The translations under genes and the position numbers were made by a program. A stretch of DNA of 64,000 bases from Psammoneis japonica (lineage: Eukaryota), in the NCBI GenBank assembly GCA_008632985.1, contig QPGO01000056.1:124001-188000 (forward strand), read 5' to 3'. Every line of letters starts with the position of its first letter. The stretch's first letter is position 1. Below, piece after piece: positions 4,916 to 64,000 of this stretch. Below the pieces are notes generated by a model. The model was given only the letters and a program-made list of their open reading frames with translations. It was not told where the DNA came from and did no database searches.

Positions 4916-6284
4916 GGCGATTTGTGTAGAAAACATGCTAAGCTCTACGTGCGTAGAATCTGGCCCACTTTTGTACCCGTGCCACCTTAAGAGTCGTCCA
5001 ATCAGTTTTAGTGGTCGGACAGCACCAAGTCACCCACTGCTTAGTGTTGACCTGCTTGAATTTTGAATTCATCCTGCAACTAAACATGACAAACTTCTTC
5101 CCATTTCTGCTTGTGCTGCCAAAGCTGCTGGCGTTAAAAACTGGCCAACGAATTGGAGTGTGGCACGCTGCAAAACTGTTGCTGCAAGCTGGCCACACAG
5201 GCTGCTTGGCACTTCTCTCCTTGGGGGAGCAGGAGAAAGGTGTGGTCTTTTTGTGTGAGGCTCCTGTGTTGGGGAGCGCAAAGCAGCGCTGTGGTGCTGC
5301 AATGACACCAACCCTTCCCCAAAGTGTGTGAAAACTTGTTGCTGTGGCGCTCCCCCCTGCACAGCCCCGCACCTGTGCATGCAAACACAAAATGATCTGA
5401 CACAGCCTTGCTGGGCATGGCCATGAAAGACATCCTGCTTTCAACATGCAGGAAAACCTGCATGGAGCAAACAAGACTTTTCCACATGGGGCATCAGGAG
5501 AGGGAAGAGCTCAAATTTGCACCCCCTTGACAGCACCTCCTTTCTGGCATTTTGGGCTTGGCATGTTGTGCGGTGCGGACACTTGTGGGTGGTGGCCATT
5601 TTGCCACTCCTGCAATCTTTGACATCATTGACATGAGCCAGCTGGCCTCTTTTAAACAGAGGCATGGAAACTGAATCCAGCAACTGCCAGCACCCCCCCA
5701 TGGGAAGAGGCCCAACCCAGCCCTGCTTTTGCTGGCTGCCTTGGCTGTGCCCATGTTCGCATCACCCCACTGTTGTTGTTGATCACCCTGGCACCTTTGG
5801 GACATTTTGCTCACTGCCTCTTGTCAGCACAAGGCTGGGAGCTGGGAGCACCGCTGCTTTGCCTCTCGTCCCTCCAGCTCCTCCCTCAGCCTGGGTTGCT
5901 GCGGCCTCCTCTTTTCAGCACCCTTTGGCATTTGTCACCTGCTCTCATGCCCTTCATTTGCCCCAAAGCCTTTTCCCATCTGCCTCTGCATCATGGAAGT
6001 TGGCTTCTTTCTCCCAACTTGGAGCTGCCCCATGTGCGCTGCGCTGTCCCCCTGCTCAGTGGGGGTGCAAAGTGCAAAGCCTTGGTTTCACTGTCAGTCT
6101 GCCAAGGCTCTTGCCAGTCAGCTGTCCTGTCATTCACAGAAATTCTGTTCCAAACTTGCCACCCAATCTGCCAAGCACCCACCTGCCCTGCCCTTCACAC
6201 ATGACTCACACACTTCCAGCACCTGCTCCTTGGTCTGCTGTGCATCAGGGCCACACAACATGATCTCATGTGTCATCATTTCTT

Positions 6285-7430
6285 GAATGCAAAATGTGCA
6301 TTTGTTTGTCCACATTAACATGGAACATGGACTTGTCTGGACAGGACCACCAACCTGGCTTGAATTTGTCTGCCACATTCTTGGCTGTTCCATGCATCAG
6401 TCGGGGCACGCACCTCCCAAAACCTGTCCAGACATTGGGGTGGATTGTCTTTGGTGTGTCTCAGAGCCCTGAGAATGCTTTCAAATTGGTCCTCACTCAT
6501 GTGCTTCCTCAACCACAGAGGTGCACCATTGACATCGTTGACCTCCTTTTGTGACCAAAGCCCTTGACACTGCAGGCCAACAAGAGCAGCCATGAGGAGT
6601 CAGATGCCAAGGAAAACCAGGAAACTCCCAACACTCCACAGGGCTTCCTTCAATGGTTTCATTGACCATGTGAAGTGTGGCATTTTCAACAAAGTCCATT
6701 GGAAATGGCAGCTTAAAGAGCTGCAGCTTTGATGGTTGAATGCTTTGATGGAAGTTGAGTTTGGGGTTCTTGTGATTCACAGTGCCCTCTTTGCAATGCT
6801 CACAAGTGCCACTGCAGTCCCACGCATCACATTGGATGGCCCCATTGTTGTCTCTAGCAGCTGGTGCATTCTCTGGAGCTGGGTCATTAACACCATCTGT
6901 TTGGACGATGTCTCTTGCTTTGTTGATGTCATTGTTTGTCAAGATGAGTGTGCCTTTGCTGCTCAACTCTTGCACAACTTGTGGGAGTTCCTCTCTTTCC
7001 TCTGCTTCAGGGCTTGCACCTTCTGCCTCCATGGTGTCAAAGAAAAACTTGCTGCTGCCTTCAGTGAGTGTTTTGCAGCACCTCTCCCAACAGCATGTCT
7101 CTTGATGCTGATCACCAACCTTGAAGTTGTCAGATTGCATCACAATGGCCAAACATGCTTTGTCTCACATGGTTTTCATTTCTTGTCAGAGCGCCCTTCT
7201 CCAGGACAACACAGCCACTTGCCTCTGATGAGCACCAAAGGATGCAGCCTGCTTGCAGCCACCAAAATGATGGCTCCTTTTCCCATCTGCTTCTTGTGTT
7301 GCAACATTGTTGTTGCGCACCAAAAAAATTGTGGCACCTCAGCACGTTGCATCTTTGCCACAAAGATCAAATTTCTGATGATGCAAAATTGCAGACATGT
7401 TGATTGTTGCATTGTCTGACATGATTTTCA
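6285..7430 (-). mobile_element. Degenerate piggyBac-like transposase fragment (N-terminal half)
   Basis: Fragments NDPAPEN, LFKLPFPMDF...VNETI, MSEDQFESILRALRH...DRFWEVR..DAWN and DKSM..WTNKCT (expected DESM..WTNKYT). Frameshifted and truncated. Confidence 0.7.
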
Positions 7431-8370
7431 TTGCTGGTCAACTGTGAAACAAATCCAATGGTCAAGTTCACAAAATTGTTTCTTGAGGTGTCATGCACAG
7501 ACTCATGTGCTGTTGCTCGTGGGGTGCAGACCGCAGCACCAAGGCTGCAACAAGTCCACTGGGTGGAGCAAAGACTTTTGGCGGTGATTATTTTGTCAAC
7601 ATGTCAAGCATCACAAAGAAAGAGGTGTCGAAGGGTCTCAAGCACATGCGGGGGAAGAAGGTTTGGGGGGTCAAACTGCACCTTGTGCCAATGTGTCTGA
7701 GAAGATGTCATCAGATTTCCTCTGGGGGTCACAAACTGGAAGGCACCAGATTGCAAAACTGTGACATCTGCAGACACGCTGGTGTGAGATGCAGTTTCAC
7801 TGTTGCAATTGACACCCACTCTTGATGATCTTTCCACACATGCATGGTTTGTTGGGTCTTGCAAAGAGATGTCATTGTTGCCCAGCTCCTCCTCTGGGTC
7901 ACATCGTGTTGAGTCCCGCACAGGAGTTTGACTCAGAATTTCTGCGGGGCTCACACTGTCAGAGATGGAATCTTGGATCATGGATCAGCACTGTGGTTTT
8001 GCACTGTTTCTGCAGATGATCTGGCGTGAGTCTTGTGCAGCTCTGCGTGAACTCTGCGTGGCAAAGTTGAGTCTTTGCAGGGCACCTTGACAGAATCAAT
8101 TCGGCCGAATCAGCTGAGTTCAGCTTGCCTGTCCAAAATCCAAATCGGAGCCAAGACGGCAGGCCCAGCACAAGGAGAGGACACCTTGTGGGTGGCCCAG
8201 CTCTTGGAGAAGTCACCATGCGATGGCAGCGCGCAGCAGAAGGTGGACAGATGGACAAAACAAAACCCGACTTCTGTTTTTAAGGTGCCACCGCGCTTCC
8301 GCCCAGCAACTCCGGCAACAAGCTAACCCACACCCCCAGTGCACATGTGTGCGGCAGGGGCGTGTGGCGA

Positions 8371-11300
8371 TCAGCCTGTGCCGGCATCTCCCTCAGGTGA
8401 TGCCACACTGAAACAACTGGCGACAGCACGAGTGCCCCTCACTGCGAGCCGTTTCGCCTCCTCAATGCTGGATTTAAACATGGGTCTCACCATTTCCAAC
8501 CAATTTCGTAATCTTCGAGTTGAGTGAGTCAAGTGTTCTTCCACCAAGTCAAACAAAGTGGACCTGTCCTTTGCGAGATGTTTGCTTGAACAGGAGTAAA
8601 TTGCCTTGACTTCTGCCTCTGCATCTCTCCGTTGGGCTGACTTCCTCGTCTCGGCGTCGTGACCATGTGCTGCGTCATTGTGTCGATCCCACAGTTCCCA
8701 CCACTGGGACCAAATGAAGCTTCCCATGGCAGCAGACCAATCCAATCTCCAGATGTTCTCCTCCACATCAGAAGGAAGCACTGTGTTCCTGAGGTGCAAA
8801 GCGTGCGCTGCATTCCATTGGATGGCAAATCTGCCGTCAAACAGGTGCCTCCATCCTGTCAGATCTTGGGGGTGGAAAACCAAAATGACACTGTGGTGCA
8901 AGTCCTCCGGAAATGCTGTTTGATCATGAAACCAAGCTTTGAGGGCTTCCAAGAGAAGATCTCGCAAGGGAGGGGGCATGTGGATGTCATCGCATTTCTT
9001 GCGCAAGCCCTGAAGGAAAGTGCGTTGCCATGATTCATTGTGAGGGCATTTTAAAATGTGGTCTCGATCCTCCATTGGGTGTGAGCAATGCACACAAGCG
9101 TCTGGGCGATTTGGGTTGTGCCGATGCACTGTCTTGTTGGTGGGAAGTAAATCTTGAACCAATTTGACCGCACTGACCTTTCGTCTGATGTTCCTTGACA
9201 TGAGTTTGGAGTGAGACGCCCAATCTATAGACCGAAACACTTCATCTGTCCATGAGTGTTTCTCTTTCATGTGCTGCACAAGTGCCGGGCGAGATGCTTC
9301 GCATCGCATCACCTGCTCAAACTTGGACCCCACTGTGGAATTGTTCAATGCCAGGTTGGCAGAACAATGAGGCATTCGCGGCGCGAGTGGGGTGTCACTC
9401 TGGAACTTTCCATGGCATTGTCCGGTGATCCTGTCTGCGCAGACATTCACTTTGGCAGGTGGAGAAAGCGTCTCATGTGGAGCATTAGAATCTTGGTGTC
9501 CTTTGACCCACTGAACAGCGACAGAAGTGTGTGGAGTGTTCTCAATGGATGATGCAGCCATTGTTTCCATTGACAAATAGATTTCATTGACAACGTCCCA
9601 ATCAGTGGATGTGGTGTTCGCTGTGTGACATCTGCGGTGAAAGTCAAGCAGCGCGGAGTCTGAATCCTGAACAGGGGAGCTTGACAGTGGTGTCTCAAAC
9701 TTCGACACAGGCAGATGACAGCCGAGTTGTTGCAGCACAGGTCGCTTCCCAGAGGACAGCTTGCAAAGCAACATTCCATCACCCGAGTTGAGAATCTCAG
9801 AAATGACAGCACTCCGCATGCCTCTGCTCTGTGAGAAGTCGGGCGAAAACCGAACACTGGACCAGCGCAGTCTACCAGTGCCGCACCATCGATGGTGAGA
9901 GTCCAGCCGAAAGTTGCTGCCTGTCTGATGACCGACCCATCGCTGCCCGCTGTTGACTGGTGCAACTGCAAGCAGTGTGCAATCTCGAAGACGGATGCGT
10001 GCATGTGAACGTCAGCGAAGAGGAATGACTCCCATTGCGGCAATGATGACAACCAAGCTTGAAAGTCCGAAGGAACCGGCATGGTGGGAGGCAGGTCAAA
10101 TGAAGATCCAGTGTGTCCAATGCGCCACCTGCCATCCTTGGCAGTGTCTGCCATCGCTGGAGAAGCCCTTGGTGACAGATCGGGTGCAACCTCAAGAGGG
10201 TCGACAGATTGGGCGGAGCCGTGAGACATGGGGAAAACCTGGAACCCCGAGTCAGACTTTGTGCACAAATGGTCTTCGTTGGGTTCACAGCATGCAGGAA
10301 AGGTCACGCGCATCTCCGTTGCTGGAATTGCCCAAGAACCCAGGGGGCCTTGAAGTTCTAAATCGTCATTCTTGCATGACAACCTGCAGGCACGTTGCCA
10401 TTGTTTCCATGCTCGAGCAGATGGGGCTGCCTGCTCGACTTGGTTCAATGTCAAAATGCTGCCAAGAACTGAGGTGTTTCCTTGGAACTTGTGCTTGTCA
10501 AGTGCTCTGCCATCGGGTGAGGTGATGTCCAAAACTGTGAGGACATTGAGGAACAAGTGACAACAGTTGACCCACCTGACCTCTTTGTCAGAGAAAAGTC
10601 CCGAATCAAGTGCCATGTCCATGAGATGTTGATCATTGTCTCGTTGAAGAGGAAGAACTCCAGGTTCGTCCAGGTCAAAGGAAGCATCGATGCAAGAAAG
10701 GAAGGGTCCAAGTGAGCTGAACCATTTTGACTCAGAATGTGGCAGGCGGGAGTGCACATCCTTCAAAAAGCTGACACCTGCACCCAGATGGAACTGAATC
10801 CAAGACACTGCGATCCATGAAAGGGCATGTGGCTGGCCAACACCTCTCCAGTGTGACAAGAGCTGCGTGACTTGGCTGACTCCTTGTTCGACATCCAAGG
10901 ACCTGAAACCACCATCTCCAAGGGAACATGGGCGAAAAGGACATCTTGTTTCTTGTTGCGATTGTGTCCACATTTCGCAAAGATTGCATGCATGGCTTTC
11001 CTCTGGATCTCCAACAGTTCCTTCGGGAGAAAATGGGTGTTTGGAAGGGTGCACGTCATTGCTGCCAGGTGGCACACAAAGCAATGGGTCCATGCTTCAT
11101 GCCGATCTAACGGGCATGATCAAAGAAACAATGCCACGTCATCGCTCTTCTTCTTTGAGGCCTTGCAGTGCGTCCTTTGCGTTCCAGCCAGAGCTTCACA
11201 GTGGCCCAAAGTCTTGTGGGATGAGTGAGGTGACAGTTGTGTGCTGGGCCTGCTGTCGGACTGATCTGTGGAAGAAATGTCAATTGCAATTTCATCATTG

Positions 11301-14300
11301 CATGCACGAAGGCAAGGCTCTCCGTCCTCCGTAAAGTTCCATTCAATGACATGAAAGGAGCACTTCGGGAGTTCCAGCTCGTGTCCTGCTGTGTTCAGCA
11401 GGTCGCCCAAAGTTGATTGTCTTGCTGCAACATTTTGAATGCCAACTCCAAGCCATCAGGCTGGGGGGATGCTGTGAAGTCATTCACCTGCTTGGATGTG
11501 TCATCCACGCATCCTCGGTTGTAGATCTTGAGTGACACGGAGTGATCAGGAGACTCAAAGAAAGCTCCGTGAGCTTTTTGGTCGAAGAGATCAAACAAAC
11601 TGTCACACACCTGGTTCCAGCACAGTGGAGAGTTTCCACTGCCTTGTCCTGTGCCGTAGATGGGAAAATCCAAAGAGTGGGAGCAAGAGGCAGGAGACAA
11701 CCCAATGGCTGTTTTCAGCCAGCACCGAGCTTGTAGGAGGGCAGATGCAGCTGACTTTGTCACTGTTTTGGGCATGCCGTTGCTTCGACTTTGAGCGCTG
11801 TAGAGCAGGAATGTTCCTGTTGCAGCAGGAGGCACAGTCGCCGTCACTGTGGACAGCCATTTTCCAAGACACCCTGCTGATTTCCAACATCAGTTCTTCC
11901 AAACATGCTGGGACGTCAGCATGCAGGAAAGGACGTGCACCGTAAATGCCTGGGTTGCACAATTTGCGATGCTCCATGTTCTGAGCCAACGAACGCCCAT
12001 GGGACACTTGAGATCAGTTGGAAATCTGCCTCGCAGATGTGAATGACGTGCAACCGGTGAATCTTGTTGTTGCCCGCTTCCTTGAATGTCATCACGTTCA
12101 CAGTGTCCCTCCATCGGTCACAGGAATGTCCCCAGCGCAAGGCGCAATTGAGCAAATTAAGCCGGATTTGCATCAAGGTCTGCTGAGCAGCATCCAGGCA
12201 GATGCATGCATCCGTTGGATCTCCGTCCTTTGTCTTGGCGCGTGAATGAGTGTGGGAAGCATGCATGGCCTTCCAGTGACCGAGGTGCAATCCCGACTTG
12301 ATGGACACAGAGGCAGTTTCCTTCCATGACTTCAACTTACCCTCCAAATCATTGGCCGTGAGACAAGAGGAGACGGCAACAGGTGAACGACGTTCGAGGT
12401 GCTGAACAAAATGAGACATGGCCTCATTGAGTTGGGTGGTGTCGCATTCGCCGTCTAAGATGAGATCAGCGAAAATCGTGTCTGCCTTGCACCGAGGTCG
12501 ACGGACAGTGGAGGAACAGCAGGTGGAGCACCGTGTGCTTGACCAAAATGGCGTTGGTTGCGGTGGCGGATGGCTGAGGCCACATCGTCTGGGGCATCAA
12601 TGGCGACCCAGTCCTCACACTCTTTTGGATTCACCACTGGGTTCCGGGGTGCCTGCATGCTGTTGACACCATTGTCGCTGTCCAATTTGCAGCATTCAAT
12701 CTTACGGAAAAGTTTCTTGGTTTCTTTGGCCTTGCGGACATTCCTGATGATCTTCACTTTGCATTTGGACTCCTTGGTGCCTTCCAATTCAAGTGAAGCA
12801 ATCTTCTTGGCCATTTCATTTTCACGGTGTACGACGCTGTCGGCAGCAACTTGTCCACATTTGGCTTGGGCGGCGCGGAGCTCACACAGACAGTCCTCCA
12901 GGGTTTCCGGGATGACAAAGGAACCTTGCAGCTTGTCTCGGATGGTGCGGATGTGGCTGCCTTGATCCAGGCGAGTGTGCATCATTGAGACCACTCGGCT
13001 GAGAACATGCACCCGATGCCGCAGTTGTGACAATTCTGCTGACCACTCTGGTTCTCTGTGGATCCGACACTTCTTCGCAGCAGCCAAAGAGAACTGCAAC
13101 ATGTCTCAATCTAACCTTTCTGCCAGTTTGTGATCGGGGACGGCTTGATCAAGTGGTGCCTGTGAGCGAGCCAACATGTGTCTGCCAGCTGACATTGGTC
13201 CGATGGCGTCCAAGCAGGTTGTCACTTGGGGTTGAGATGAAGACTGGGCATCCCTGCAGCTGGCCTTGGGCAAGTCAACGGCAGGATTCCCAAACAAGGC
13301 CATTGTGTCAAAGTCCACGATATGAGCATGATGGTCTGACATGGTGCGACAACTGAAAGCTTCATGTCCGCCAAACCTGGCAGCAGACAAAGCACCGGGT
13401 GCAGCAAGCACGAAGTCCAGGCGTTTCCGTCCTCGCGTGCATGTGGAAAATTCATTGCTGCCCATCAAATTATGTGACACATCCGAAAGGGTAAAACGCT
13501 GGGCGAGGGAGGCGAGTGTGTCTGTGTCCATCAAGAAATTGGTGTTGAAATCTCCGCAAACGATGACTTCGCGATTGGAGTGACCAAGAACTCTTGCAGG
13601 TGACGAGATAAATCTGCACAAAAGGCCTTCCTGGGGTCGACAGACTGTCTGCCATTTTGTTGTAGAAGGGCTGCTTGTTGTGCATGAGCCGCAGTCTTTC
13701 CAGGGGTCCTTTGATTTTTTTCACAAACTCTGCAGCACGAAATGAACATGACTTGCTTGCCGTTGCATCCGTCAAACATCTGAGTGGACCAACGGCCCAA
13801 TGGGTCTGATTCTTGGCTGCGGCATCGTGCTGAGATGGAGTTCCCCGACAAGAGGGCCGCACCACCAGGTTTGTGCTGAGCAGTGAAGGGGGTTGAGCTG
13901 CATGAGAAGGTGCCGCGTCCATTGGAAATTGCACTGTAGACAGCAGATCGACACACTGACAGAATGTCATGCTGCGCAGTGTCCAGACACACTTCCAAAA
14001 TGCCCACGACGTCTGCTTGGATCTCATTTGCCATTTGACAATGCTCACGGATGTCACCGCCTCTTTTGTCCAATTTACAACCGTCAGCATTGAATGCATG
14101 CAGACGAGTGAGATGGGGCAGCTCAGGACAAAGATCATCACCAACAGGATCATTTGATGTCAGCTGAGAAAAGTCAACACTTCGAGCGCTTGACGCACCA
14201 TTGCTGGTGCCGTTCAAGAGCAATTGCCATTCGTTGACACGGATGCACTGATGGAGTCACTGCTCATGTTGGGCCACACTCCTCCGAGGAGAAGACTGGG

Positions 14301-16234
14301 GCTCAGAGCTCTGACTGTCAGGTGATGCAGCGCCGCAGGAGAATTTGCGGTGCTTGGCAGTGCGGCGGAACAAATGGGAGATGGTGAGGGACTCGTTTGC
14401 AGGAGATGAGATGTCGGGTGGATGCCTGATTGTTTGAGGGGGTGGAGGTGGCAAAGTCCAACCCCTGTCTAAAAATCCTTCTCCTTGTCACGTGAATCAG
14501 CCGAGCGATCCGGTGTGTCCATGTGATTTGGACGTTTCCTTGCAGATGTTTGGGTTGGATGATTTGCTTGGAGCAGGTGGACTGTCTGATTCATCTGGTC
14601 CTGCACACCCGCAAGTTGTTGAGAGCACTGAGCATGTAAAGCTGCGATGTCCTGCGCGTGTTGTTGTGTGAATGCATTGTCAATCGCCTCCATGTCTCGT
14701 GAGTGTTGAGAACGTAAATCCTCCAAAGCTCTCTGGTTTTCTCTTGCATCTGAGACATGTTGCGTTGGACGTCTGCCAGCTGAACAGAGGGGCAATGGAG
14801 CTGGCGGTGGACTGTGTGGCCTGTGCATGTGAGTGCGGAGGAGAAATCATGCTGGGGCAACTGGAACATCCGGGCAGCGAGGGCAAGTTCTGGGAGTGCT
14901 GGGTGCAGATGTGGGGAGGAACAGCTGATCCTTGTTGAGCACCACGGCCGGGGAAGCCTCGACCTCTGCCATCACATCCACGGCCCGCCGATTGCAAGTG
15001 GTGGGTGTTGATGATTGCCTGAAGCGTTGTTGTCTGTCAAAGGTGAGACATCAGAAAAGGTGAGAAACTCTAAACTGCGGATGCTGGCCAATGCAATGGA
15101 CTTGCCAGTGTCCGACATGTCTTCCATCATGCCAGAAACTTGAGGAGGATCCTTAAAGAGTGGGGTGGGATGGGCTTCTTTCGAAATTGTTGGGATGAGA
15201 TTCATGTCGCACGTGGAAATGGCGGCCCTGGCAGAGTTGAACTCAAGACAGTTGACAAGGACATTGCAGCGGCCGGCAATGGCACTTGATGGGAAGATCG
15301 CTTTCACGTCCTTCAATGCCTTGAGCTGACTCTCAAAATGGAGCATGATGTCCGGAGCAGTGTTCAGCAGTGGAACGACGAAAGCATCTTCGTTCCGATG
15401 AGCTTGGATTTTGACCGCATTGCAAAAGGTGAGGGGGGAGATGTGCCGGGTCTTGGCCATGACAATGTGTGTTGGGAACTTTTCGGACACATGAAGCAAG
15501 GCCTTCCCGGCCGAGCGACAGTCTTCCATCAACACCTCAACAGCGAAGGCAGCAGCACGTGGGGGAGGAGCAAGACCTTTGTTGTTGGCACGAATGGAGG
15601 TGGGCACCAACCTGAACTTTGGCATTTTTGTCTGGCATTTCCCAAGATCACGGAGGAACATTTTTGCAGCTTCGTCGACTGGAGCATGTTTAGTCGCGGC
15701 AGCAATGTGGCATGCTGGGGAGGCCGTTTCGACATCTGATTCGTTCCAACAATGATGTTTCACACCCATGTTGTTAGAATCCAAAATGCTCTGGATGTGA
15801 GGATGAGAGCGAACGTCACAAAGAGGAATTTTTGCAAGGATCCGGTGGCACAGGCGGTGAGTCACGGGACGTTTTTCACCTTTTCGAGTCATTGAAATGA
15901 CGAAGTGTCTTTCGCATTGAAGAGAAGACACCCATTCGGCCACGTTGACGTGGGCAATTTGGTTGTTGTCATTGTCCATGATCTTTGCGTCCTTGTGGCA
16001 GGTGAAGAGAATTTGTTGAAGAACCTGCAAATGAGCGGCAACAAGAGTCGCTGGCTTGCACGATGCTTCTGGGCCACTGATGTCGAAACGAAGGGCAACT
16101 TCCTCAAACTGATGCTTGGTCGGTTTGGAGGAAGGCTTGATGGATGATTGGTCGACAGTGATGTCATCGGCCACAGTCGTGTCATGACGACAGGAAGGGG
16201 TGTGGCTGCCGTCAGCGACGGAAGAAGATGCCAT
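8371..16234 (-). mobile_element. Large non-LTR retrotransposon (LINE, Ambal-like): ORF1 (16234-~14470) and ORF2 with APE, RT, RNase H and CCHC; pseudogenised
   Basis: APE motifs GDFN, RLDFVL, SDH. RT motifs YGTGQGSGNSP, GCVDD, LELPKC. RNase H motifs SDGS, SHRAEACG, QWVKGHQD. Zn finger CVHC..EDRDHILKC. Many frameshifts. UTR limits uncertain (probably ~7500-16520). Confidence 0.9.
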
Positions 16235-17085
16235 GGTGGTTGGCTGTTCTGCGGGGAACCTGGCGTTGAAAATGCTCAGGCACTTTCAGCTGGAATGCGC
16301 GCAGAATTGTGTGGACAGATGGACAGATGGACGATGGCAAGAGGCCATGTCAGTTTCCCTCATTGTGTTTGGCGGACTGCCGGTGATGATGGGATCAGTT
16401 GCGTCGACCCAACATGGGCCGACAATGCTGAAAATTCTTCCCACCCAGCCCAGCCCTCTGTCCACACAGTGTTGGGGAACAAAATGGACGGAATCAGAAC
16501 CACAGATTTGTTCCCTGTTTTCTAGGCTACTGTCTCAGCAGCACCACACGAATGTACATGCTCGTATGTGTTTCTAGAAGTGTGCATTAGATACATTCGT
16601 GTGTTGATTGTTGCGTCCATTCGGTGGCTTGCACCGAAGCGAGGACGAAGGACGAACTGAACACGAACATCCCTGCGCGCGCGCGCTGCATGCATGTTGT
16701 ACGGTATGCACAGGTATGCATGCATCACGCATCAGGCACAAATAATAAATCAGGCACGACGATGACGGGCCGGCATCACACTCTCACATCATACAACACA
16801 TGGGGAGCTTAAACACCAATGAGAGTACGGTATGATGCCGGCATACCTTCGTCACAAACTTATGGCTTGCTGTTTTCACCACGGTGAAGCACGGTGAAAT
16901 TCGTAAAAACTTCATACACCGCGGGAACCGCGAACCGACAAGTGATATTGAACAGGATGCACCTTCTTCCTATATTCTGCACCCGCTCATAAGCATGCTT
17001 AGATGTGTTGAAAACGGGTTCTCCGAGCTTGTCAATATCATGTCTCACACATTCAAAAAGTGTGAGAGACAAGACGAACCACGTC

Positions 17086-18619: not shown

Positions 18620-19149
18620 TTACACGGAATGGTTTCTGTAGAATGGTGCTAGGCTGTAGTCCCTGTAGTTATGATGTGTTGCCAAAAAATGAAGGAGTGT
18701 TTCCTATTTTTTTTAGTCTTCGGTAGAGACAGTCTCAAAAAGCTTTTTGTCTACATCATAATACACACCCACACACACCTTCTCAAACTATTAGTACAGC
18801 ATAGCATGCGGTGCCCGCCAAGGCAAAGATAACATGAAAAAAGACAGTCCCTTTTGAGAAAATTGGTCACGGCGGACTCTGTCATGTCGACGTGCTCGGT
18901 TTCGTAAAGGATTGTACTGTATGTAATTACTGACAAAGTACAAAGATCAACGAAAAGGAAGAACGTTTGGCAAAAGCAGACTCGAAACTCTCGCTCCAAG
19001 CAATGAACGCTGTTGGAAAATGAAACAACGAGGAAACCTGAAATCCGTTCCGAAATGTACCGCATCTTGGGCCCCCAGTCTCTCTAGTAGAGACACTTGG
19101 GGTGTTGTAATTGTTCGAAACGGTGCATGTCAGACTGAAAGATACAACC

Positions 19150-25100: not shown

Positions 25101-25270
25101 GAGCATGACAGAGCCGGTGGGAGACATTTAAGACAGGACATGACAAAAGAGTGCAGCAAAGGGGGGCACACCATCCAGTGTCCAACACAAATCAAATTCA
25201 AAAAATCCCCGCGCATCCGACGGACAGGCAGAGCAGATCGTGGAGGTTGTTTGGTCCATCCGCCACCCGT
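19150..25270. repeat. TpA-depleted repeat island 2
   Basis: About 17 TA dinucleotides in 6 kb by manual count. CpG is also strongly depleted. Confidence 0.9.
20700..24240 (+). mobile_element. Degenerate Ty1/copia (CoDi-like) LTR retrotransposon: gag, protease, integrase; RT/RNase H missing
   Basis: gag fragment QNDKGRALV..H..DAQ. Protease ALVDCGANG. Integrase TDKEFVNMLKDNI...WQSEPHQQHQN. Downstream motif NVMLEWESREITSKPL..IAKDD.ITCA. LTRs not identified. Confidence 0.85.
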
Positions 25271-47296: not shown

Positions 47297-48269
<973 letters not shown>

Positions 48270-55690: not shown

Positions 55691-56742
55691 ATTGGAAAAA
55701 AATTATCGGGTGTCTCGAATATATATCACAAAAATTCTTAAAAGCACAACCCGCTGACAAGTTTCAAGAAGTGCAGGGAACATGCCATTGCCTCTTGTAG
55801 TATTACCGGTGGGTCATTGCCGTATCATGCATACAGTGTACGGTACATTGTCTCGACCGTGCTAAGGATCTGTCCGACGTCCGCAAGCGACATCCAGTTG
55901 CCTTTCGCGCGATCCGTGGGATTTAGCGCGGAGAGACGTTTTTTTTTCGGAGCGTGGATTTTTGTGTGTTTTTGGAGATGACGCTGCGGCGTCCCATGCT
56001 CGGCCTTGTTTGTGCTATTCTTCATCGTTTTCGTTCATTTGAAGACACGGATGTTACTTTTAGGAGGTCGACTGGTTAGACAAGGGCCTTGGTTTGGCGA
56101 GGAACGGTGTTGTGTGTATGGAAATCGAAACATGGGTCTTTTTGCTTTTGTCAGCCACATTTCTGAGCAGCAAAACCCACACTTTGATCTTCATTCGTTC
56201 AGTTCACTTCCACTGATGACACCCACTGTTGATGACAATTGACCACAGTCACGAAAAGTTTCCCATGTCTTGGTCATGCTGTGTGTTTGATTTGTGGCGA
56301 GAAACATTGCACTGTCACATTGACAGGAATCGCCACAAAAAATGAGGATTTGTGATGACCCACACTTGGATCTTTGTTTGCCCAATGCACCTTTTCTGTT
56401 GCTTGCCTTTGGCAGTGCATCTTTGTCATAGATGCAAAAAACATCTCCTGTCTTGTGCATGTTGTGTCTTTGATTTGTGGCGAGCAACATCGGCCACACT
56501 CGTGTGGTCTCACACTGGCATTTTTTGACTGACACCGACCCATGTTTTGATGTTTGTTTGTTCATTTCCTCTCTTTGCTCACACTTCTTTGATTGAATCT
56601 TTTCGTTTTACAGTTTTGAAAGCTTTGTGCTCTCTTGCACTTGCTTTGGGGGTGGGGTCTGTCATCTCACAGCTGTTGCCTCAGAGAACCTTGTCGACAG
56701 AGCAACTGAAGAAAAGCATCCTCTGGTGCTGAGAATGATTCT

Positions 56743-59700
56743 TTGAATGAGACCACCAACAGTGGGTCCAGCTCTGTTGTGGTGGGTCAGACCAGTGAGG
56801 AAAGTCTTTGGTCCAAAACAAGCAAGGACAAGCTGAACTTGACAGGGCATCCTGAAGTGTTTGACCTCGCCCTCATTCGACCCGGGCACATCGACAAGAA
56901 ACTCATGTTGGGTTGCATGGCCACTGCGGATGTGATTGACATGCTGCAACACTCCTGCTTCCAGACCACACTGACCAACATTCAATGAGAACATGTGCAA
57001 CATGTCACTTTGGACAGCACATCCAAGGATCGCCCTTGGCAATTTTTGACCTGGTGTGGGCAGAGCATGTTGATTGACTCAACTCCAGTGCAGCAAGAGT
57101 CAACAACACGCCAAAGCAACCTGGATGTTAAAGCATTGGAACAAATGCATGACAACAACTCAATTCAATCCTAAAATTTGAACAGCCCTTGCTGACTGCT
57201 GCCCATGCCAAGCCTTCAACAATGCCTGGCATGCCATTCAATCTACAACCATGGGGGGGGGGGTCAGAGTGCACATGCAATGGTGCAAAACAAGTGCAAC
57301 TCAGCATTTGCAGTTGTGGGCAGAAACACTGCACAAAACTGAAAGTCATCTTGGATTCCCAATCAACATCAAATGCAGTGACAGCTGTTCCTGCCACTGA
57401 TGCTGCTTCTGGCCAATGTCTTTTGCAGTCCTGGTCTTCTGCCAGGACTGCCTCCATTGGTCTGGTGAGCCATCACATGTGAGATGGTGGTTCAAGGTGG
57501 GGTGGTCACAAAAATTCTCAAATTCTTCTTTGATGCACCCATCCAGAATGCTGCAAGTTTGCAGAAGGCTTTTGCAGTGCCAGGCAGCAATCACAACCCA
57601 GGATGACTCTGCCATGTGAGATGTTGCATGTCAAGTGCAAGAAAGTGAGTTTGTGGATCATCAAACAGATGCTTCCCCACTCCCCACGACAAGCACTCTG
57701 ATCACTTTCCCTGCCTGGAATCTGATTGACACCGTGGCATTGGTGTGAGTGACCTTCTGATGGAAACAACATCACATCTGGTGCTGTTGCTGCCTGTTGT
57801 TTCCTTGAATTGGCTGTCTGCCACAATGTTGGTTGTTCCTGCAATGGTTTCTTCAGCAAGCACAGATTCATTGGGTTGCTGTTGTGTGGCAGGCAGGACC
57901 ATTCAATGGGGTCAGTCTCCTTCTCAAGTTCCATTGATGTGAAGCTGGTGGTCGTGAGCTTGTTGCTTTCATTTTGCATCACTTCAGTTGGGGGAGAATC
58001 CCTGGGCAATTTGTTCTCATGGTCCACTTGGATGGCAGACTTGTTTCCCTCTGCTGCGCTGTGTTGAGGATGTCTTGAGTGGCATTCCATGCCCTTGAGT
58101 CATCCCTGATCCCCTTTTGCTTGCTCCTTCTTGTTGTCCCTCCAGTCTGCCTCACTCTGCTGTGCTGCCTTGCCAACCCAACCAATTCTGCCCAACACCT
58201 GGCACTGCAAAGCCTCAGTCATCTGCACAATGGTTTCCACACTCTTCAATCTGTTGAGAACGAACAAATTGAAATGCAACAGTTGTGAGAAAAGAGTTTG
58301 AATGTCTCAGCAAAATCTCAGAATGAGAGTTTGACCATTTTTGGACTTTCTCCTGCCTCTCTTTTCTCATGTGCACTTTTCCAAGTGCAATGAAGCATGT
58401 CATGCATTGGCATTGTTGGCAGGAAAAGTTTGGCGGCAGCAAAGTGGCATCAGCTGTTGTGAGATTCAAGCATGAGTGGCAGGAGCAAGAAAATCACAGA
58501 AGGAGTTTTGTCCATTGTTCTTGGACTTTGTCTTGCCTCCATTTTCATGGATGCACTTGTCAGAGTAAAATGTGGCATGTGATGTGTCAGTGTTGTTGGT
58601 GGGAAAAGGTTTGGCAGCACAATCCAGCATTGGCTGTTGCTGCCGTCATGGTTGCTCTGTTTCCTTGTGTTGTTTGGGCGAGCAACGTCTGGGAGTTGTG
58701 CATGCAAATTCACTGTTGTGAACAATGACTCATGTCAAGCAATTGATTGATTGTCTTCATGCAGCACATGGGTCGATGCCTCACGCAGCTTGTGAACTTC
58801 CCTCATGCAGCATGTGAAGTCATGAGCCACACAAGGTTGAGCAATGAGAGTTCGTGTTGTGCAGCATGACTTCCCTTGTGCAGCTTGTAAAGTTGCAAGC
58901 TGCACAAGGGAGATTTGCTTGTTAATGCCAATCACATCAGATCCCCATTTGGCATTGAGAACTTTTCCATTTTGGACTCAGCAATGAAGGATCTGAGATT
59001 TTGTCAGGACTCCTCTGTTCCTGTCATTTGTGCTTCTCATCCCGGTGGCCCACTCATTTGAGGTCCATCCAAAATGTGCAAATGCAAGCAACAAACCAGC
59101 TGAGCACCATCCTGGCCATTGTTGACAATGAACCTTGGGAGTTGCTGCAACCTCCTTGTCTTCAGCAGTTTTCATGTTCTTCCTCATCCTTTGCACCTTG
59201 GTGTGCTGTCATTTCTTCCTTGGACACTTCGGGCTCATCACCCTCTTCTTGCTTGTGGCTCATGGCTGCTGCTCAAATCATTGCTGGCCACCGCATGTTC
59301 ATCCTCAACTTGCTTTGCTTGCATCAGCTGAACCAATCGTCTTGTCTGGAGCTGACACATTGTCATCCTCTTCTGAAGAGCTCATTGTTGGAACAGACAC
59401 AACATTGATTTTTCCCATGCAAAAACAACAATGAGACAAGCTTTGTTTTAAAAGAATTGTGGCAAATTTGCGGCCCACATGTGGGTCGCAAAAATTTGTG
59501 ATGAGAATTTTGCGGCCCACATGTGGGCCGCAAAATTGCACGTTAAGCGTCTGATGCGATTGGTGTCAAAGAATGACCATTCACTTGAATGTTGTCACCC
59601 CGTGGCTTTGCCCATGCTGTTTGATGAGCTGCCCACCCTTTCTGCCACCCCAGCACAAGTGGATCAACTCACAGCAGAGCAAGACAATGTGGAAGACATG

Positions 59701-59760
59701 ATTTCAGTGTTGAAAAAGAAAGCCGCATCTCTGTTGTTGCACGCAAGATGCACCTTGGAA
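56743..59760 (+). pseudogene. BCS1-like AAA ATPase gene fragment split by a ~2.5-kb insertion
   Basis: KDKLNL...HPEVFDLALIRPGHIDKKLMLGCM at 56820-56920 and TPAQVDQLTAEQDNVEDMI at 59645-59705. Confidence 0.65.
59464..59537. repeat. Two adjacent palindromes
   Basis: Perfect 32-bp palindrome aattttgcggcccacatgtgggccgcaaaatt at 59506-59537, with a near-identical copy at 59464-59497. Confidence 0.9.
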
Positions 59761-60409
59761 AAAGCTCAACCTCTTCCATTCATTTCAACCTTTGATCTTT
59801 CAATTTCTCAAACTTGTCATTCCATGCTTCCTCACATTGCGCACATGGCACAATGACATGTCCATGGTGCATCCATGCTTGCCAGCTTTTGGATCCGATC
59901 AGACAACTGCAGACCTCCCACTTTCAATTTCAATGGTGATGATGTCTCCTGTGACATTGCTCTCTGCAACTGCAGGTGGAGGCCATGACAGCTTTGAAAC
60001 CACTGCATCATGCTCTCCAAAATGGAAGGTCATCTCTTCTCATCATGGCTGCTGAGGTGGTCAAATTGTCCACATTCACATGGCGCAGCAAACGTTTCAG
60101 TTTGTCTGAGCTTTTTTCAAGCTCTTGTGGAGCAAACTGGCTTTCTTCTGCTTCTTCCTCACCATGTCAGCCATGCAACATGGGTTCTTGTCAGGCACAG
60201 GCTCTTGAGGCAATGCTTCAGACATTGACACACCAAGAAAGTCAGTCTGATTCGATTCTCCCATCAAGACCCATCCACAGTGCAATTTCTGCGGCCCACA
60301 TTTGCCTTGCTCAGGCGACACTTGCGGCATGTTTCTTCCATCCACACTGACAGTGGAACCTCTGCCCAAGCATCTTCACTCAAATTCTCAGTGCCTTGTT
60401 TGCACTGGC

Positions 60410-61320
60410 GACTTGTTCCAGACTTAGGTGCCCTCACGCGCGAAAAAATGACCCTTTTCGCATGAAACGCGCGGTCCACACTTGCGGTACCATTTTCGAT
60501 AGTAAAAACATAACAATTTTCAAATGTGTTGTTATGGGTACATACAGAAAGGTCTTGTGCGTGTACCCATGTATTCGAAACTGTGGATGGACTCAGTTAT
60601 TAGTCCCTAAATTGTACCGTAAGTTGAGAGCTCTGTTTTCCGAGGAGCGATTTATAGATGTCTAAATGTGTGTAGAAACGTATAAAATATTATTCTTATA
60701 TATAAATGAACCCTCTAACATAACATAATTAATCTTTGGTTACAATGCGCGAATACAACTTTGATTCAACGGATCGAATAAAACATACGTTGATTGATAA
60801 GTTTCGGACGACGTGAGAAGAAGGGTAGCTCAGCCCACGCAATGGCGTCGACTTCGGACCATTTTTCACTGTTTAAGAGGCATAAACGATTGAGACACTT
60901 GAATCCGTCGAATATATTGAGGAAGTATACATGGTAATGGCAAAGAAATGGTCCTTAGAGGCAAATTGTGAGTGAATTGAGGCTCAATTGTTGTTGCTGA
61001 CAGATTTAGTATTATTGTGCCGCGCTGCAACCTGTAACAAGCATTTTCACTATTGTTGTTGATGCCATAGACTATATCAAATACGGAGGTCCTCGTCATG
61101 ACATTAAATTTTCCATAAGGCTGAAAAAAGTGGGCCGTCATGGTCACTGAAAGCCATGGCCGGTTTGGCTGTTTGTTTGTTCGAGTTTATTCTGTTTATT
61201 TTACTTAAAAGCAATTGATATGATCAATATAATGAAATATGTACGATGTTGTATAAAGCATAAAAAAATTTTTTTCTGCGAAAAGGGGCAGTTGCGCGCC
61301 ACCTAAGTCTGGAACAAGTC
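60410..61320. mobile_element. Non-autonomous DNA transposon (MITE) with 21-bp perfect TIRs and 4-bp TSD TGGC
   Basis: gacttgttccagacttaggtg (60410-60430) pairs with cacctaagtctggaacaagtc (61300-61320). tggc lies at 60406-60409 and 61321-61324. The interior is AT-rich and non-coding. Confidence 0.88.
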
Positions 61321-61629
61321 TGGCAGCCAGCAGCAATTTTCAACCCATCTTCACTTTTGTGTGGAACAAAAAAAAGTCACACCTGGGGAAGGAAGCAAAC
61401 ATGGGAGCCGCAACTGCCTGCAAAACTTGCCTTCTCAATGATGCCATCAATGGTTCTTGCACTTCTCTTGCATGACATTGTGTTCATTTCCACATGACTT
61501 TGTATTTTTCCTTGTTTGAAATGTCAATCATGACTCACGTGACATTTTTGAATGATTCCCATTGTGTTGTGCTCAATGGCTGGCTTGGAAAACATGACAG
61601 AAATGCCAGGATTGGCTTCTGTGCAACAA

Positions 61630-62320
61630 TTTGGACTGATGTTGTGTGTTTGATTTGTTTGGTCATGCATGCACCCTTGGAGAAGTTGAGCATGATCAAT
61701 CTCGAGCTCATCTCATTGTTGGGCATGCTGCAAGCAACAGCCCTTTTGCATCGTTTGCATGCAATGCCTCTCTGCTTGGAGCTCAACAATCAGCAATGCC
61801 TGGATTGGCTTTAACACAACAAGAAGTTTGGACAACATTTGTGCATTTGATTTGTTTGGTTCACATGCATTTGCAGTGAGCGTGATCAATCTTGCACTCA
61901 TCCTCATTGTTGGATGTGTTGGAGCTGCTTTCGCGTCATTTGTGCACAATGCCTCAGCTTGGAACTCAACAATGACACATGGATTTTCTTTTGAACAACA
62001 AGTTTGGAAAACATTTGTGCGTTTGATTTGTTTGGTTCACATGCATTTGCAGTGAGCGCGACCAATCTCGCGCTCATCCTCATTGCTGGACACACTGGAG
62101 CCGCTTCTTTTGCGTCATTTGTGTGCACGATGCCTCAGCTTGGAACTCAACAATGACACCTGGATTTTCTTTTACACAACAAGTTTGGACAAAATTTGCA
62201 TGTTTGATTTGTTTGGTTCACATGCATCCACAGTGAGCACAATCAATCTCGCGCTCATCCTTGTTGTGCGGCGTGCAGGGACCGCTTTTTTGCATCGTTT
62301 GCATGCAATGGCTCTGGCTG
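61630..62320. repeat. Tandem repeat, ~180-195 bp unit, about 4 copies
   Basis: tttgatttgtttgg recurs near 61649, 61846, 62022 and 62203. Confidence 0.9.
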
Positions 62321-63406
62321 CTTGGCATGCATTTGCATTTCAATCTAATTCAGGTGCCATGTTACACAAGCACGGAACTGTTTGGCTCTGCCAGATGGCA
62401 GCTCATTGCATTTTGTCCAGAGCTCTGCTGTGGCCATTTGCTTTTTTTAAGTTGCCATGTGCCCTGCTTCGCATGGTGATTTTTTGGTGTCATTGACAGA
62501 ATGACAAAAAAGAGGGGAGGAGAGAGAGAGGAGAGAGAGAGGAGAAGAGAGGAGAAAAGAGAGGAAAGAGAGGAAAAGGGAGAAGAAGGCAGAAAGAGTT
62601 CAATGCTGCAAGTCCAAGTGCGTGTTGTCATGCTTTGTTTTGATGCAAAAAAGCATGTTCTTTAGTGTGCCTCCGATGAATGTGAAAAGACATAAAGTTT
62701 GTAGAAACAAAGCACAAGAAAAAGTTTTCCATGTTCAAGTGAGGGTGCACCCACGACACCCAGACAACGCAGTGCAGAAAACCATCCATCACAAAAAACC
62801 ACGTGCTGCAGAAGCAGCCGATGCTCGATCATTGCCGTCAAACCTTCTCTTGCAAACAACACATTAATGCAGGTCAATTCCACAATTTGCTCTGTTGTTG
62901 TGTGTCCAAGAAAACAGAGGTGAGAAAGTCCCAAAATGGGTGAAAACTCCTTCTGTGTTTTTGCTGCTGTTGGCATTGCTTGATTCTCACAACTTTCACA
63001 CTTCAATTTTGTTTTTCTCGACAGATCGAAGAGCACAGACCATCCTTGTTTTGAGAATGTGTTTGATTCAACTCCTTCCCATGGAGTGAAAGAAAACACC
63101 TTGATGAGCATCGTTGCTTTATTTTGCCGCCGCCACCACGTGCTGCATGAGGCAAGAACATGCCCTGAGCATTTCTTTCATGCGATTCCACGCAGTGAGT
63201 GGTGCTCCCTTGTTCAGGGACCAAAAGGGCATGGGAGTCAGCTGTGTTGGAGAAGATGGCATTGGAGCAGGTGGTTTTGGAGCAGTGGCTGCGTGCAGGG
63301 GCTGCGATGTTGCCGTCCATGGTTGGCAAGGAGTTGGGCCACTGTGACGCCATCGATGGATGTTGGGAATGCAGTCAACTCTGCTGAAGAGCACACGACA
63401 AATCGC

Positions 63407-63773
63407 AGCTGTGAGTGGGGACTGCAATGCGACAACGCCGTCAATGGACCTCAGGAAAAAGCAGGGGTTGCGGGAACGCCAAGGGGCTGTGGTTGAGCCA
63501 TCGGGCTGTGGTGTCACCATTGGGACACCGGTCAAAAGTCGAAACAGCAGCGGCAGCAAGAGATGGAAATGGACGTGCCTGTTGTGAGGGCACATGTCGT
63601 AGCTTCGAGTGGGGACTGCAATGCAATGAAGCCATCAATGGACCTTGGGAAAGGGTGGGGGCTGCGGAAATGCTGAGGGGCTGCAGTGATGTCACCATTG
63701 GGATGCCGGTCGAAAGTCGAAATGGCAGCGGCAGCGAGAGATGGAAATGGATCTGCCTGTCATGAGGGCACAT
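63407..63773. repeat. Tandem duplication, ~175-190 bp unit
   Basis: gagtggggactgcaatgc...gagatggaaatgga...gagggcacat occurs twice. Confidence 0.9.
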
Positions 63774-64000
63774 TTGCTTTTTGTTTTGACAGAAGGCAAG
63801 TTTTGATTGCTCTTGCTGGTGATTGCCAGTCTAGCTGCATGGCACAATGATTTCCCAACTGTGGATGCATCTGGTGCTCACATGAATGTCTGCCTCCATG
63901 TCCTTTGCAGTCTTGACATTGGCAGGCACGGCAAGTCCTCCTGCCCCTTTTCTCTTTGTCAGGGCCATGCCTTCCAGGACAATGATTTTGCAAGTTTGGT

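Follow-up and report, generated by a model that had tools for sequence, protein, structure and literature searches.

Six islands in the DNA examined here hold almost no TA dinucleotides, while the genes between them have kept theirs, which raises the question of what has removed TA from the former and spared the latter. Across the window, i.e. the whole analysed stretch of 64,000 bp, 100 TA were counted in 29,352 bp of island DNA (frequency 0.0034, observed/expected ratio 0.05, range of the individual islands 0.034-0.070), versus 1,385 in the 34,465 bp outside (0.0402 and 0.57), which bears out the contrast drawn in a preliminary description made from the letters alone. Three or fewer TA were present in 100 of 255 sliding 500-bp windows, all 100 of them at islands, the chance of such a count in one window at the host TA density being 2.9e-6; the longest TA-free runs extended over 1,322 bp (57244-58566, within island 5) and 1,206 bp (22337-23543). 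The island edges, drawn from the positions of TA, were sharp to about 50-150 bp, and three genes between islands (Table 1) retained normal TA. The Laminin_G_3 gene displayed observed/expected TA of 0.49-0.83 in the windows covering it; the ArfGAP gene, where a spliced run X2 contig covers 25539-25617, is separated from island 2 by 396 bp and from island 3 by 163 bp; and the insulinase gene, whose best named homologues are from Ditylum and Odontella (55-57%) and which served to assign the DNA to a diatom, encodes 28 Tyr.

Table 1. Islands, their recognisable parts and the host genes between them (TA, CpG, TG and CA ratios are observed/expected).
Feature	Position	Strand	Remarks
Island 1	5136-16522		parts 1a and 1b
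Island 1a	5136..8329	.	unclassified, TA-free, CpG-poor; border with LINE approximate; 8 TA (0.04), CpG 0.22, TG 1.79, CA 1.77
Island 1b, degraded LINE	8330..16522	-	weak Exo_endo_phos and zf-RVT matches; 2,167 homologues (of ORF 9447-11096)
LINE, endonuclease	~13106-13720	-
LINE, RT motifs	~11395-12596	-
LINE, C-terminal part	8371-11096	-
LINE, possible ORF1	14972-16285	-
Island 2	~19100..25128	+	3'-truncated copia-like retrotransposon and unclassified upstream DNA; 19 TA (0.052), CpG 0.18
Copia-like element, protease	~22300-22764	+
Copia-like element, integrase	22765-24650	+
Island 3	26667..29971	.	unclassified, TA-free; assembles uniquely with flanks; 8 TA (0.036), CpG 0.21
Island 4	33693..35320	.	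unclassified, TA-free; 4 TA (0.038), CpG 0.30
Island 5	56118..60424	.	unclassified, TA-free, internal repeats; 10 TA (0.034), CpG 0.22
Island 6	61305..64000	.	unclassified, TA-free, extends past window end; 13 TA (0.070), CpG 0.43
Tandem array	61602..62330	+	four units of ~180-193 bp, inside island 6
Host gene, Laminin_G_3 domain	17357..18619	+	between islands 1 and 2; Pfam E 2e-24
Host gene, ArfGAP	25524..26504	+	Pfam E 3.7e-28; TA normal
Host gene, insulinase (M16 peptidase)	30125..32506	+	between islands 3 and 4; Pfam

The affected elements had been given as LINE, copia, piggyBac and a host-gene copy. The first two were recovered by Pfam and homologue searches, the copia-like element with 59 homologues, some of them carrying PF07727; neither piggyBac nor a host-gene copy was found in the islands by Pfam, homologue and Atlas searches, which also returned no match for island 1a. 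Frameshifts and other substitutions mark the elements as truly decayed. As for duplication, the family of island 2 is multi-copy, with many related read contigs, while island 3 is bridged to both flanking genes by one contig; the repeat-targeting proposed in the preliminary description stays a conjecture. A 272-bp repeat is common to islands 3 and 4, and islands 5 and 6 have inverted repeats in common. That all islands are mobile DNA is an extrapolation from the two that are proven transposable elements, about 15 kb being unclassified.

The islands were enriched in TG and CA (observed/expected 1.70 and 1.77 over the 29 kb of the six blocks). The summed frequency of the pyrimidine-purine steps was nearly equal inside (0.2423) and outside (0.2409); relative to the rest of the window TA was lower in the islands by 0.0368, CG was lower by 0.0336 and TG+CA was higher by 0.0717, and the remaining 12 dinucleotides had the same observed/expected ratios in both. 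Since the pyrimidine-purine total is unchanged, TA and CG in the islands have been converted to TG and CA through transitions. ORFs 9447..11093, 14972..16234 and 23382..24650 were confirmed to encode no Tyr, with 3.3-6.4% Cys and 4.9-5.9% His, compared to 19 and 28 Tyr, 1.4-1.7% Cys and 3.4-3.8% His in two host ORFs; in DNA without TA the absence of Tyr is plain arithmetic and not separate evidence.

The loss of CpG (observed/expected 0.18-0.50 in the islands), to which the preliminary description did not refer, is accompanied by Arg>His/Gln/Cys replacements, and in both respects the islands resemble DNA undergoing decay of methylated CpG (for the DNMT background in diatom transposons see PMC9998398). 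As the sole cause of the TG/CA excess such decay was rejected: the CG loss covers less than half of the gain, TA loss supplying the remainder, and methylated-CpG decay leaves TA alone, as seen in 13 of 80 related metagenome loci, in which CpG was at most 0.25 of expectation and TA still 0.45-0.78. Within the window the two depletions also differed in depth and in edges, island shoulders having CpG of 0.33-0.81 where TA was about 0, and the LINE having TA of 0.08 although its CpG was 0.61. TpA loss is thus independent of CpG decay.

The direction of the change was read from residues conserved in relatives of the two identifiable elements, polarity being that of a cross-species consensus at the amino-acid level and not of unmutated copies from the same genome. 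The copia-like ORF was identical to the consensus in 128 of 180 conserved columns, and had Tyr in none of the seven conserved Tyr columns (3 Cys, 2 His, 1 Phe, 1 Trp); the LINE ORF was identical in 97 of 150, with Tyr in none of nine (4 Cys, 1 His, 3 Phe, 1 Thr). Pooled, 0 of 16 conserved Tyr were retained and 10 were replaced by Cys or His (Fisher p = 4.8e-9), the other six, now Phe, Trp or Thr, not being one TA>TG/CA step away. Single-step A>G/T>C replacements at conserved residues numbered 16 at TpA and 6 elsewhere, although TpA makes up just 15% of A/T bases (p = 2.3e-9), so that the predicted enrichment at TpA was indeed observed. The TA-free, Tyr-free state is not native to these families: homologues of both families have a median of about 3-4% Tyr, and TA was 0.45-0.98 of expectation in 79 of the 80 related loci. 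Taken together, these comparisons clearly indicate that the change ran from TA to TG/CA and was confined to TpA. With the rest of the window as a stand-in for the ancestral composition of the elements, TA survival was 0.364 in TTAA and 0.008-0.014 in GTAC, ATAT and ATAC; survival of T-A-A and T-T-A provides a first specificity profile of TpA loss.

The preliminary description had the process converting A to G and acting on adenine. The transition at TpA stands, but TpA is self-complementary, and adenine and thymine as targets look alike in sequence. The same island-confined DNA process could have attacked the thymine of TpA, e.g. by TET/JBP-type oxidation to 5-hydroxymethyl- or 5-formyl-uracil, which pairs with G and yields T>C; we consider this improbable. 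Every result fits either base, TA>CA being TA>TG on the other strand, and the survivor rule reads equally as resistance of T-T-A; base J and the hydroxymethyluracil of dinoflagellates are also placed preferentially at T-A steps. Set against this, we know of no thymine-modifying enzyme or base of the TET/JBP type in diatoms, and no feature of the window speaks for one. Adenine deamination is also the reading favoured, as a proposal, by the authors who described a comparable process in Bigelowiella natans (Mettrop et al., bioRxiv 10.64898/2026.01.13.699255, preprint 2026).

Both strands of the DNA were affected within single ORFs, as had been claimed: in sense orientation the TA-type replacements in the two ORFs comprised 10 TA>TG and 6 TA>CA, the Cys (TG) and His (CA) outcomes were interleaved, and no strand runs of TG or CA were found in the islands. 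CA/TG was the most frequent doublet difference in 7 of 7 repeat comparisons inside islands, versus 0 of 5 doublet differences in a TA-normal palindrome. The tandem units of island 6 differed mainly by CA/TG doublets and by CG versus TG/CA; among their variable pyrimidine-purine columns eight held only CA and TG, eight still included CG and none included TA. Changes on both strands of one ORF, together with tandem units differing by CA/TG, point firmly to islands that were mutated in place, as DNA. ADAR-like A-to-I editing of retroelement RNA, fixed by reverse transcription and insertion, would have suited the fact that both identifiable elements are retroelements, and RNA adenosine deaminases do prefer a 5' U. 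Such editing, however, predicts only TA>TG in sense orientation, and with 6 of 16 replacements being TA>CA this candidate was rejected as very improbable; about 95% of TA is gone, the tandem units have been hit to the same degree, as has unclassified DNA that assembles uniquely, and ADARs, which act on RNA, are to our knowledge confined to animals.

An equally improbable scenario is a sequencing or assembly artefact, in which a modified base in heterochromatin was systematically miscalled. The pattern is confined to probably methylated (CpG-poor) regions, as this would require. A contig of run X1 (9,303 bp, word depth 60.8), possibly from the assembly's own sample and of an accurate short-read nature inferred from that depth, covers 24092-33406, from which it differs at 19 letters and by 12 gaps, which would suggest that at least part of the assembly came from other, less accurate data. 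Yet this contig contains island 3, the end of island 2 and the flanking genes, and TA is not restored in it. Since an accurate contig built from reads agrees over an entire island and the genes on either side, a base-calling artefact is unlikely. The same state was found in an independent metagenome contig (L042, TA at 0.04 of expectation) and in a protein (P0297, Cys or His in 5 of 6 conserved Tyr columns), and the frameshifts and other substitutions speak for genuine decay. A bias towards GC in repair or in gene conversion between repeat copies, or a biased correction of T:G mismatches, would fit the net A:T-to-G:C change and the multi-copy family of island 2, but is hardly credible, as TA alone was lost (AT, AA and TT at 0.91, 1.18 and 1.15 of expectation inside islands, 0.91, 1.17 and 1.19 outside), GC reached just 0.50 versus 0.47 in the rest, and island 3 assembles uniquely.

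The core of the preliminary description, a process that acts on genomic DNA, converts TpA to TpG/CpA on either strand and is confined to repeat- or heterochromatin-like DNA, has thus held through the tests it named. We consider it about 80% probable that the islands represent defunct mobile DNA in the nuclear genome of a diatom, changed by CpG decay and by a TpA-specific A:T-to-G:C process. A LINE, a copia-like element and a number of unclassifiable pieces would have been mutated after their arrival in the chromosome: ordinary decay of methylated CpG would have acted beside a far more thorough production of TpA-specific A:T-to-G:C transitions on both strands, both with TG/CA as the end product, and the latter would halt no more than about 100 bp from an island edge, leaving genes 160-400 bp away untouched. 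Inactivation would proceed by missense (Tyr to Cys/His, Leu to Ser) and not by new stop codons, and TA-containing signals (TATA, AATAAA, TTAA) would also have been erased. We infer that an enzyme drives the TpA process, as a defence directed to foreign DNA that has been silenced. Our leading, still tentative, guess for the enzyme is a TadA/ADAT2-like deaminase, which would turn the adenine of T-A steps in DNA into hypoxanthine, less efficiently at T-A-A. The natural tRNA substrate of TadA/ADAT2-ADAT3 has a U before the edited A, and the chemistry would give A>G. The one ADAT2 shown to edit DNA, that of amphioxus, is however described as preferring adenine in GAA rather than in TA (and cytosine in TCG; PMC10354150). 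The window itself contains no TadA/ADAT-type adenosine deaminase gene.

Two further known systems invite comparison. As in RIP of Neurospora and other ascomycetes, mobile DNA has undergone wholesale in-place transitions on both strands and within sharp limits, with genes intact. RIP, however, turns C:G into T:A mostly at CpA and creates TpA and stops, whereas in the islands TpA is destroyed, stops are removed and GC is slightly raised; with TpA at 0.05 and CpA/TpG at 1.7-1.8 of expectation the signature is the opposite, as already recognised, and fungal RIP was rejected. The statement that no equivalent had been described did not hold, since the B. natans preprint (10.64898/2026.01.13.699255) measured hypermutation restricted to TpA in integrated NCLDV and virophage DNA. 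In its two viral regions 230 of 231 mutations were A>G or T>C, those all on TpA, and in mutation-accumulation lines the de novo rate was locally raised about 1000-fold. The islands carry the same signature, here as a footprint: as far as the accessible part of the preprint goes, both systems change TpA to TpG/CpA only, on both strands of foreign DNA in an otherwise normal genome, TpA loss goes with CpA+TpG gain, and a single-copy region can be affected. The low-TpA class of B. natans coding sequences, enriched in RT and DDE domains, has a TpA frequency (0.0018 vs 0.041) similar to that of the islands, which at the ratios given above lie beyond the B. natans cut-offs (Rho TpA <=0.43, CpA+TpG >=1.52).

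The two differ in host, a rhizarian (chlorarachniophyte) versus a stramenopile (diatom), and in targets, giant-virus inserts in B. natans versus retrotransposons and unclassified repeats in the islands. All six islands are depleted nearly to saturation, whereas the NCLDV region of B. natans has a Rho of 0.45 and its virophage region shows no depletion; CpG decay accompanies TpA loss in the islands and is not mentioned in the accessible part of the preprint; and the mutation rate was measured in B. natans, the islands being known from a footprint, with three TA<>TG/CA differences of the X1 contigs from the window (19058, 24921 and 27388) as the only hints of recent change. Our literature search returned no report of TpA hypermutation in diatoms, the B. 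natans preprint being the sole account of such a process. A second and far stronger TpA footprint, in a diatom, suggests that the process is not one species' curiosity, and that it reaches retrotransposons besides viral inserts, beside CpG methylation and not through it. It is conceivable, if rather unlikely, that a single ancient TpA-directed defence is common to stramenopiles and rhizarians, perhaps to all SAR, with a dedicated DNA deaminase whose recruitment to silenced foreign DNA does not depend on cytosine methylation and which acts, in this diatom lineage, on all mobile DNA classes to saturation. If so, and with a distribution among diatoms as patchy as 1 of 80 related loci, presence/absence profiling could lead to the enzyme, possibly a natural DNA adenine editor; as most related elements from other sources keep TA, genomes bearing the footprint can be set against those lacking it.

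The depletion also bears on annotation. Both strands of the islands contained 143 TAA/TAG triplets versus 1,448 TGA/TCA, and ORFs of at least 110 aa occurred at 3.00 per kb, compared to 1.93 outside. Where TA is absent there can be no TAA or TAG, and long, false ORFs are therefore inflated in every frame; true domains also escape detection: only 2 of the 225 island ORFs scanned gave a TE-domain match, both weak, and repeat content and gene counts in TA-depleted genomes will accordingly be misjudged.

TA content along the window followed a two-state pattern in sliding windows, and six islands were bounded from the positions of the TA dinucleotides (see table). The islands contain 100 TA per 29,352 bp (obs/exp 0.05), compared to 1,385 per 34,465 bp (obs/exp 0.57) outside them, bearing out the TA-free blocks amid normal DNA reported in the preliminary description. 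At most three TA were found in 100 of the 255 windows of 500 bp, all 100 of them at islands; at the host TA density, the probability of such a count in a single 500-bp window is 2.9e-6. The island edges are abrupt: at the left edge of island 3, TA occurs at -1, -23, -30, -36 and -48 from the first base of the island and then not until +443, and genes 160-400 bp away from islands have kept normal TA.

Islands and other features, in window positions
Feature	Position	Remarks
Island 1	5136-16522	Unclassified to 8329 (island 1a), LINE from 8330
Island 2	about 19100-25128	Copia-like element and unclassified DNA
Island 3	26667-29971	Unclassified
Island 4	33693-35320	Unclassified
Island 5	56118-60424	Unclassified
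Island 6	61305-64000	Unclassified
CpG-retaining shoulders (examples)	26667-26916, 33693-33942, 19100-19349	
LINE ORF	9447-11096 (-)	2,167 homologues
Copia-like ORF	23376-24650	Part of the copia-like element
ORF in island 1a	6493-7164 (-)	No homologue among longer proteins
Tandem array	61602-62330	Four units
Inverted repeats common to islands 5 and 6	58242-58643, 62808-63033	
Spacer between islands 5 and 6	60425-61304	880 bp, AT-rich
Palindrome	4566-4917	352 bp, 220 bp before island 1
Insulinase ORF	30125-32506	
X1 contig	24092-33406	9,303 bp
TA/CA or TA/TG differences from X1 contigs	19058, 24921, 27388	At or inside islands
Segments skipped by X2 contigs	25539-25617, 17158-17266	77 and 107 bases, GT..AG ends
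Assembly gap	38948-39130	183 N

The losses of TA and CG are a redistribution via transitions. The four pyrimidine-purine steps sum to 0.2423 inside the islands and 0.2409 outside; the change in the islands amounts to -0.0368 for TA, -0.0336 for CG and +0.0717 for TG and CA together (obs/exp 1.70 for TG and 1.77 for CA inside, 1.16 and 1.17 outside), with the obs/exp of the remaining twelve dinucleotides maintained. When pairs of in-island repeats were recoded as purines and pyrimidines their identity rose from 77 to 90% and from 72 to 88%, indicating that most differences between the repeats are transitions.

The change took place in DNA, in place and on both strands. CA versus TG was the commonest doublet difference in all seven comparisons of in-island repeats (6, 2, 11, 8, 8, 6 and 2 cases). 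In the tandem array, eight variable pyrimidine-purine columns contain only CA and TG, eight include CG and none includes TA; CpG loss in the array is only about half, so that most CG-derived columns should still show CG, and the columns restricted to CA and TG most plausibly go back to TA that was converted separately in each unit. A runs test on the order of TG and CA in the islands (z from -1.07 to +3.38) revealed neither clustering nor strand runs. Sense-orientation replacements in the LINE and copia-like ORFs comprise ten TA>TG and six TA>CA, interleaved, and the earlier claim that both strands were hit within one ORF therefore holds.

The three ORFs singled out in the preliminary description do contain no Tyr and show raised Cys and His. 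This argument calls for caution, as the islands lack Tyr because they lack TA. The absence of TA also excludes TAA and TAG (143 such triplets in the islands versus 1,448 TGA or TCA), and long ORFs are consequently commoner there in every frame (3.00 per kb versus 1.93 elsewhere).

The direction of change was examined by comparison with homologous proteins. All 59 homologues of the copia-like ORF, some with PF07727, have ordinary Tyr (2.1-5.0%) and ordinary Cys. Fifty-five were aligned, the four weakest being left out, and of the 180 columns that reached 60% consensus 128 are identical in the ORF, yet none of the seven conserved Tyr has been kept (now Cys 3, His 2, Phe 1, Trp 1). For the LINE ORF, median Tyr was 3.6% among 150 listed homologues; of the first 80 listed, 62 had an HSP of 250 aa or longer, and their alignment gave 97 of 150 columns identical at a consensus of at least 50%, yet the nine conserved Tyr now read Cys (4), His (1), Phe (3) and Thr (1). 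When both ORFs were pooled, the consensus residue was kept in 0 of 16 Tyr columns versus 225 of 314 other columns (p = 4.8e-9).

Each replaced conserved residue was then classed by the single base change that would explain it. With ambiguous cases assigned to TpA first, a bias toward that class, the copia-like ORF yielded 7 replacements of TpA type, 20 of CpG type, 1 other A>G/T>C, 0 other G>A/C>T, 11 transversions and 13 multi-step changes, and the LINE ORF 9, 6, 5, 6, 14 and 13, respectively. A>G/T>C replacements fell at TpA in 16 cases versus 6 elsewhere, the TpA share of A/T bases being 15% (p = 2.3e-9). Replacements of Arg by His (4), Gln (3) and Cys (2) and of Glu by Lys (4) in the copia-like ORF indicate CpG decay.

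CpG, little stressed in the preliminary description, is depleted in the islands as well (obs/exp 0.18-0.50 per island). The LINE combines CpG at 0.61 with TA at 0.08, and island 1a CpG at 0.22 with TA at 0.04. Within 250 bp of the edges of islands 2-5, CpG obs/exp is 0.33-0.81 versus 0.10-0.20 in the interior, with TA already about zero; TA loss therefore extends beyond CpG loss, and these contrasts together indicate two processes of different depth and different spatial extent. From these CpG-retaining shoulders, a mark sharing the TA-free borders is predicted to be something other than 5mC. CpG survival by flank ranged only from 0.28 to 0.73 and was not diagnostic.

Among 80 related copia-like loci from metagenomes (359 kb), 79 have a TA obs/exp of 0.45-0.98; 13 of these have a CpG obs/exp of 0.25 or less and still keep TA at 0.45-0.78. 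The remaining locus, L042 (1,025 bp), is TA-free (obs/exp 0.04) and alone has a TA-free run of at least 300 bp. Among the 150 LINE relatives listed, only P0297, a fragment from a 1,032-bp ENA contig, has less than 1% Tyr, and it carries Cys or His in five of the six conserved Tyr columns that it covers. On these comparisons, the loss of TA is neither a property of the TE families nor the same as CpG decay. L042 and P0297 are two independent public sequences in the same TA-lost state; the two TA of L042 both lie within a conserved Tyr-Tyr pair.

A base-calling artefact, which the preliminary description had considered, was checked against sequencing reads. A contig from run X1, whose word depth of 60.8 suggests accurate reads, starts in the last part of island 2 and takes in the ArfGAP gene, island 3 in full and the insulinase gene; it differs from the window by 19 letters and 12 gaps, and TA is not regained through the differences listed. 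X1 is possibly of the assembly's own sample, and the result therefore tests the base calls and not the biology; L042 and P0297 derive from other data sets. Three differences of TA against CA or TG between the window and X1 contigs may be polymorphisms of a still-active process, or assembly differences. Related read contigs numbered 1,997 for island 2. Island 3 was bridged uniquely, so that a high present-day copy number is not required, and 'repeat-targeted' in the strict sense is not supported by these data. A tiny run, X3, matched island 2 only (80-95%).

Pfam, homologue and Atlas searches recovered neither the piggyBac element nor the host-gene copy named earlier. Pfam searches of 225 island ORFs (13 + 77 + 135) gave two weak LINE-type matches and otherwise chance-level hits; the Atlas search returned no usable match and the viral_contigs search no relative, and a search for an LTR pair was negative even after purine/pyrimidine recoding. 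The proteins encoded by the host ORFs are ordinary eukaryotic ones, and introns are few. The best named homologues of the insulinase ORF are from the centric diatoms Ditylum and Odontella (55-57% identity; best overall 70%), and the window is, as judged from its proteins, diatom nuclear DNA. The segments skipped by X2 contigs are introns lying within or ahead of the ArfGAP and Laminin_G_3 genes, which suggests that X2 is cDNA; most of island 2 is without X2 cover, and this was not taken as evidence on expression.

Survival of the 100 remaining TA is non-random. The TA-normal part of the window served as a proxy for ancestral composition, which makes only large contrasts trustworthy; against it, survival ratios were 0.364 for TTAA, 0.19 for CTAA/TTAG, 0.12 for GTAA/TTAC, 0.014 for ATAC/GTAT, 0.010 for ATAT and 0.008 for GTAC. 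Many survivors lie where a T-run meets an A-run at the TA. The poor target is T-A-A if adenine is attacked and T-T-A if thymine is attacked. Gain and loss of tetranucleotides by flank, confounded by TE-versus-host composition, hint at T-A-C over T-A-A. The agent may be an adenine deaminase, a tentative assignment to which we give a probability of about 0.4. A route directed at the thymine of TpA, to which the survivor pattern can equally be fitted as T-T-A, appears unlikely. Eukaryotic 6mA is known from ApT and not from TpA, and deamination of 6mA was rejected on this motif.

The finding is real, and the proposed conversion of TpA to TpG or CpA by hypermutation is supported. The preliminary description knew of no equivalent, but a 2026 preprint (bioRxiv 10.64898/2026.01.13.699255) provides one in Bigelowiella natans. 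Of the 302 nuclear mutations in its mutation-accumulation lines, 231 fell in integrated giant-virus and virophage regions, a rate about 1000-fold over background; 230 of the 231 were A>G or T>C, all 230 on TpA. The preprint also reports 324 TpA-poor CDS (frequency 0.0018 versus 0.041) enriched in reverse-transcriptase and DDE domains, as well as 124 clusters of TpA-poor, CpA+TpG-rich windows, and proposes an ADAT2-like protein as a candidate; diatoms, stramenopiles and CpG are not mentioned in it. Amphioxus ADAT2 is described as deaminating DNA, in an adenine context, GAA, unlike the TpA seen here (PMC10354150). Diatoms are described as having RID-related DNMT4 genes of unknown function, which concern cytosine (PMC9998398). 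A search of open-access papers and bioRxiv found none that describes a loss of TpA from diatom TEs. With the window, a kind of targeted hypermutation previously described once is seen in a diatom, where it affects retrotransposons and has reached saturation.

Several further features were noted. The palindrome, with arms of about 176 bp that are 83% identical (90% after recoding), has normal TA content and no CA-versus-TG case among its five doublet differences; a foldback element is one possibility. The spacer separating island 5 from island 6 has a GC of 0.37-0.40 and a normal to high TA content, at an obs/exp of 0.7-0.86; it may represent either host sequence or a recent insertion. The flanks of the assembly gap are AT-rich and TA-rich, with a GC of about 0.29-0.32.
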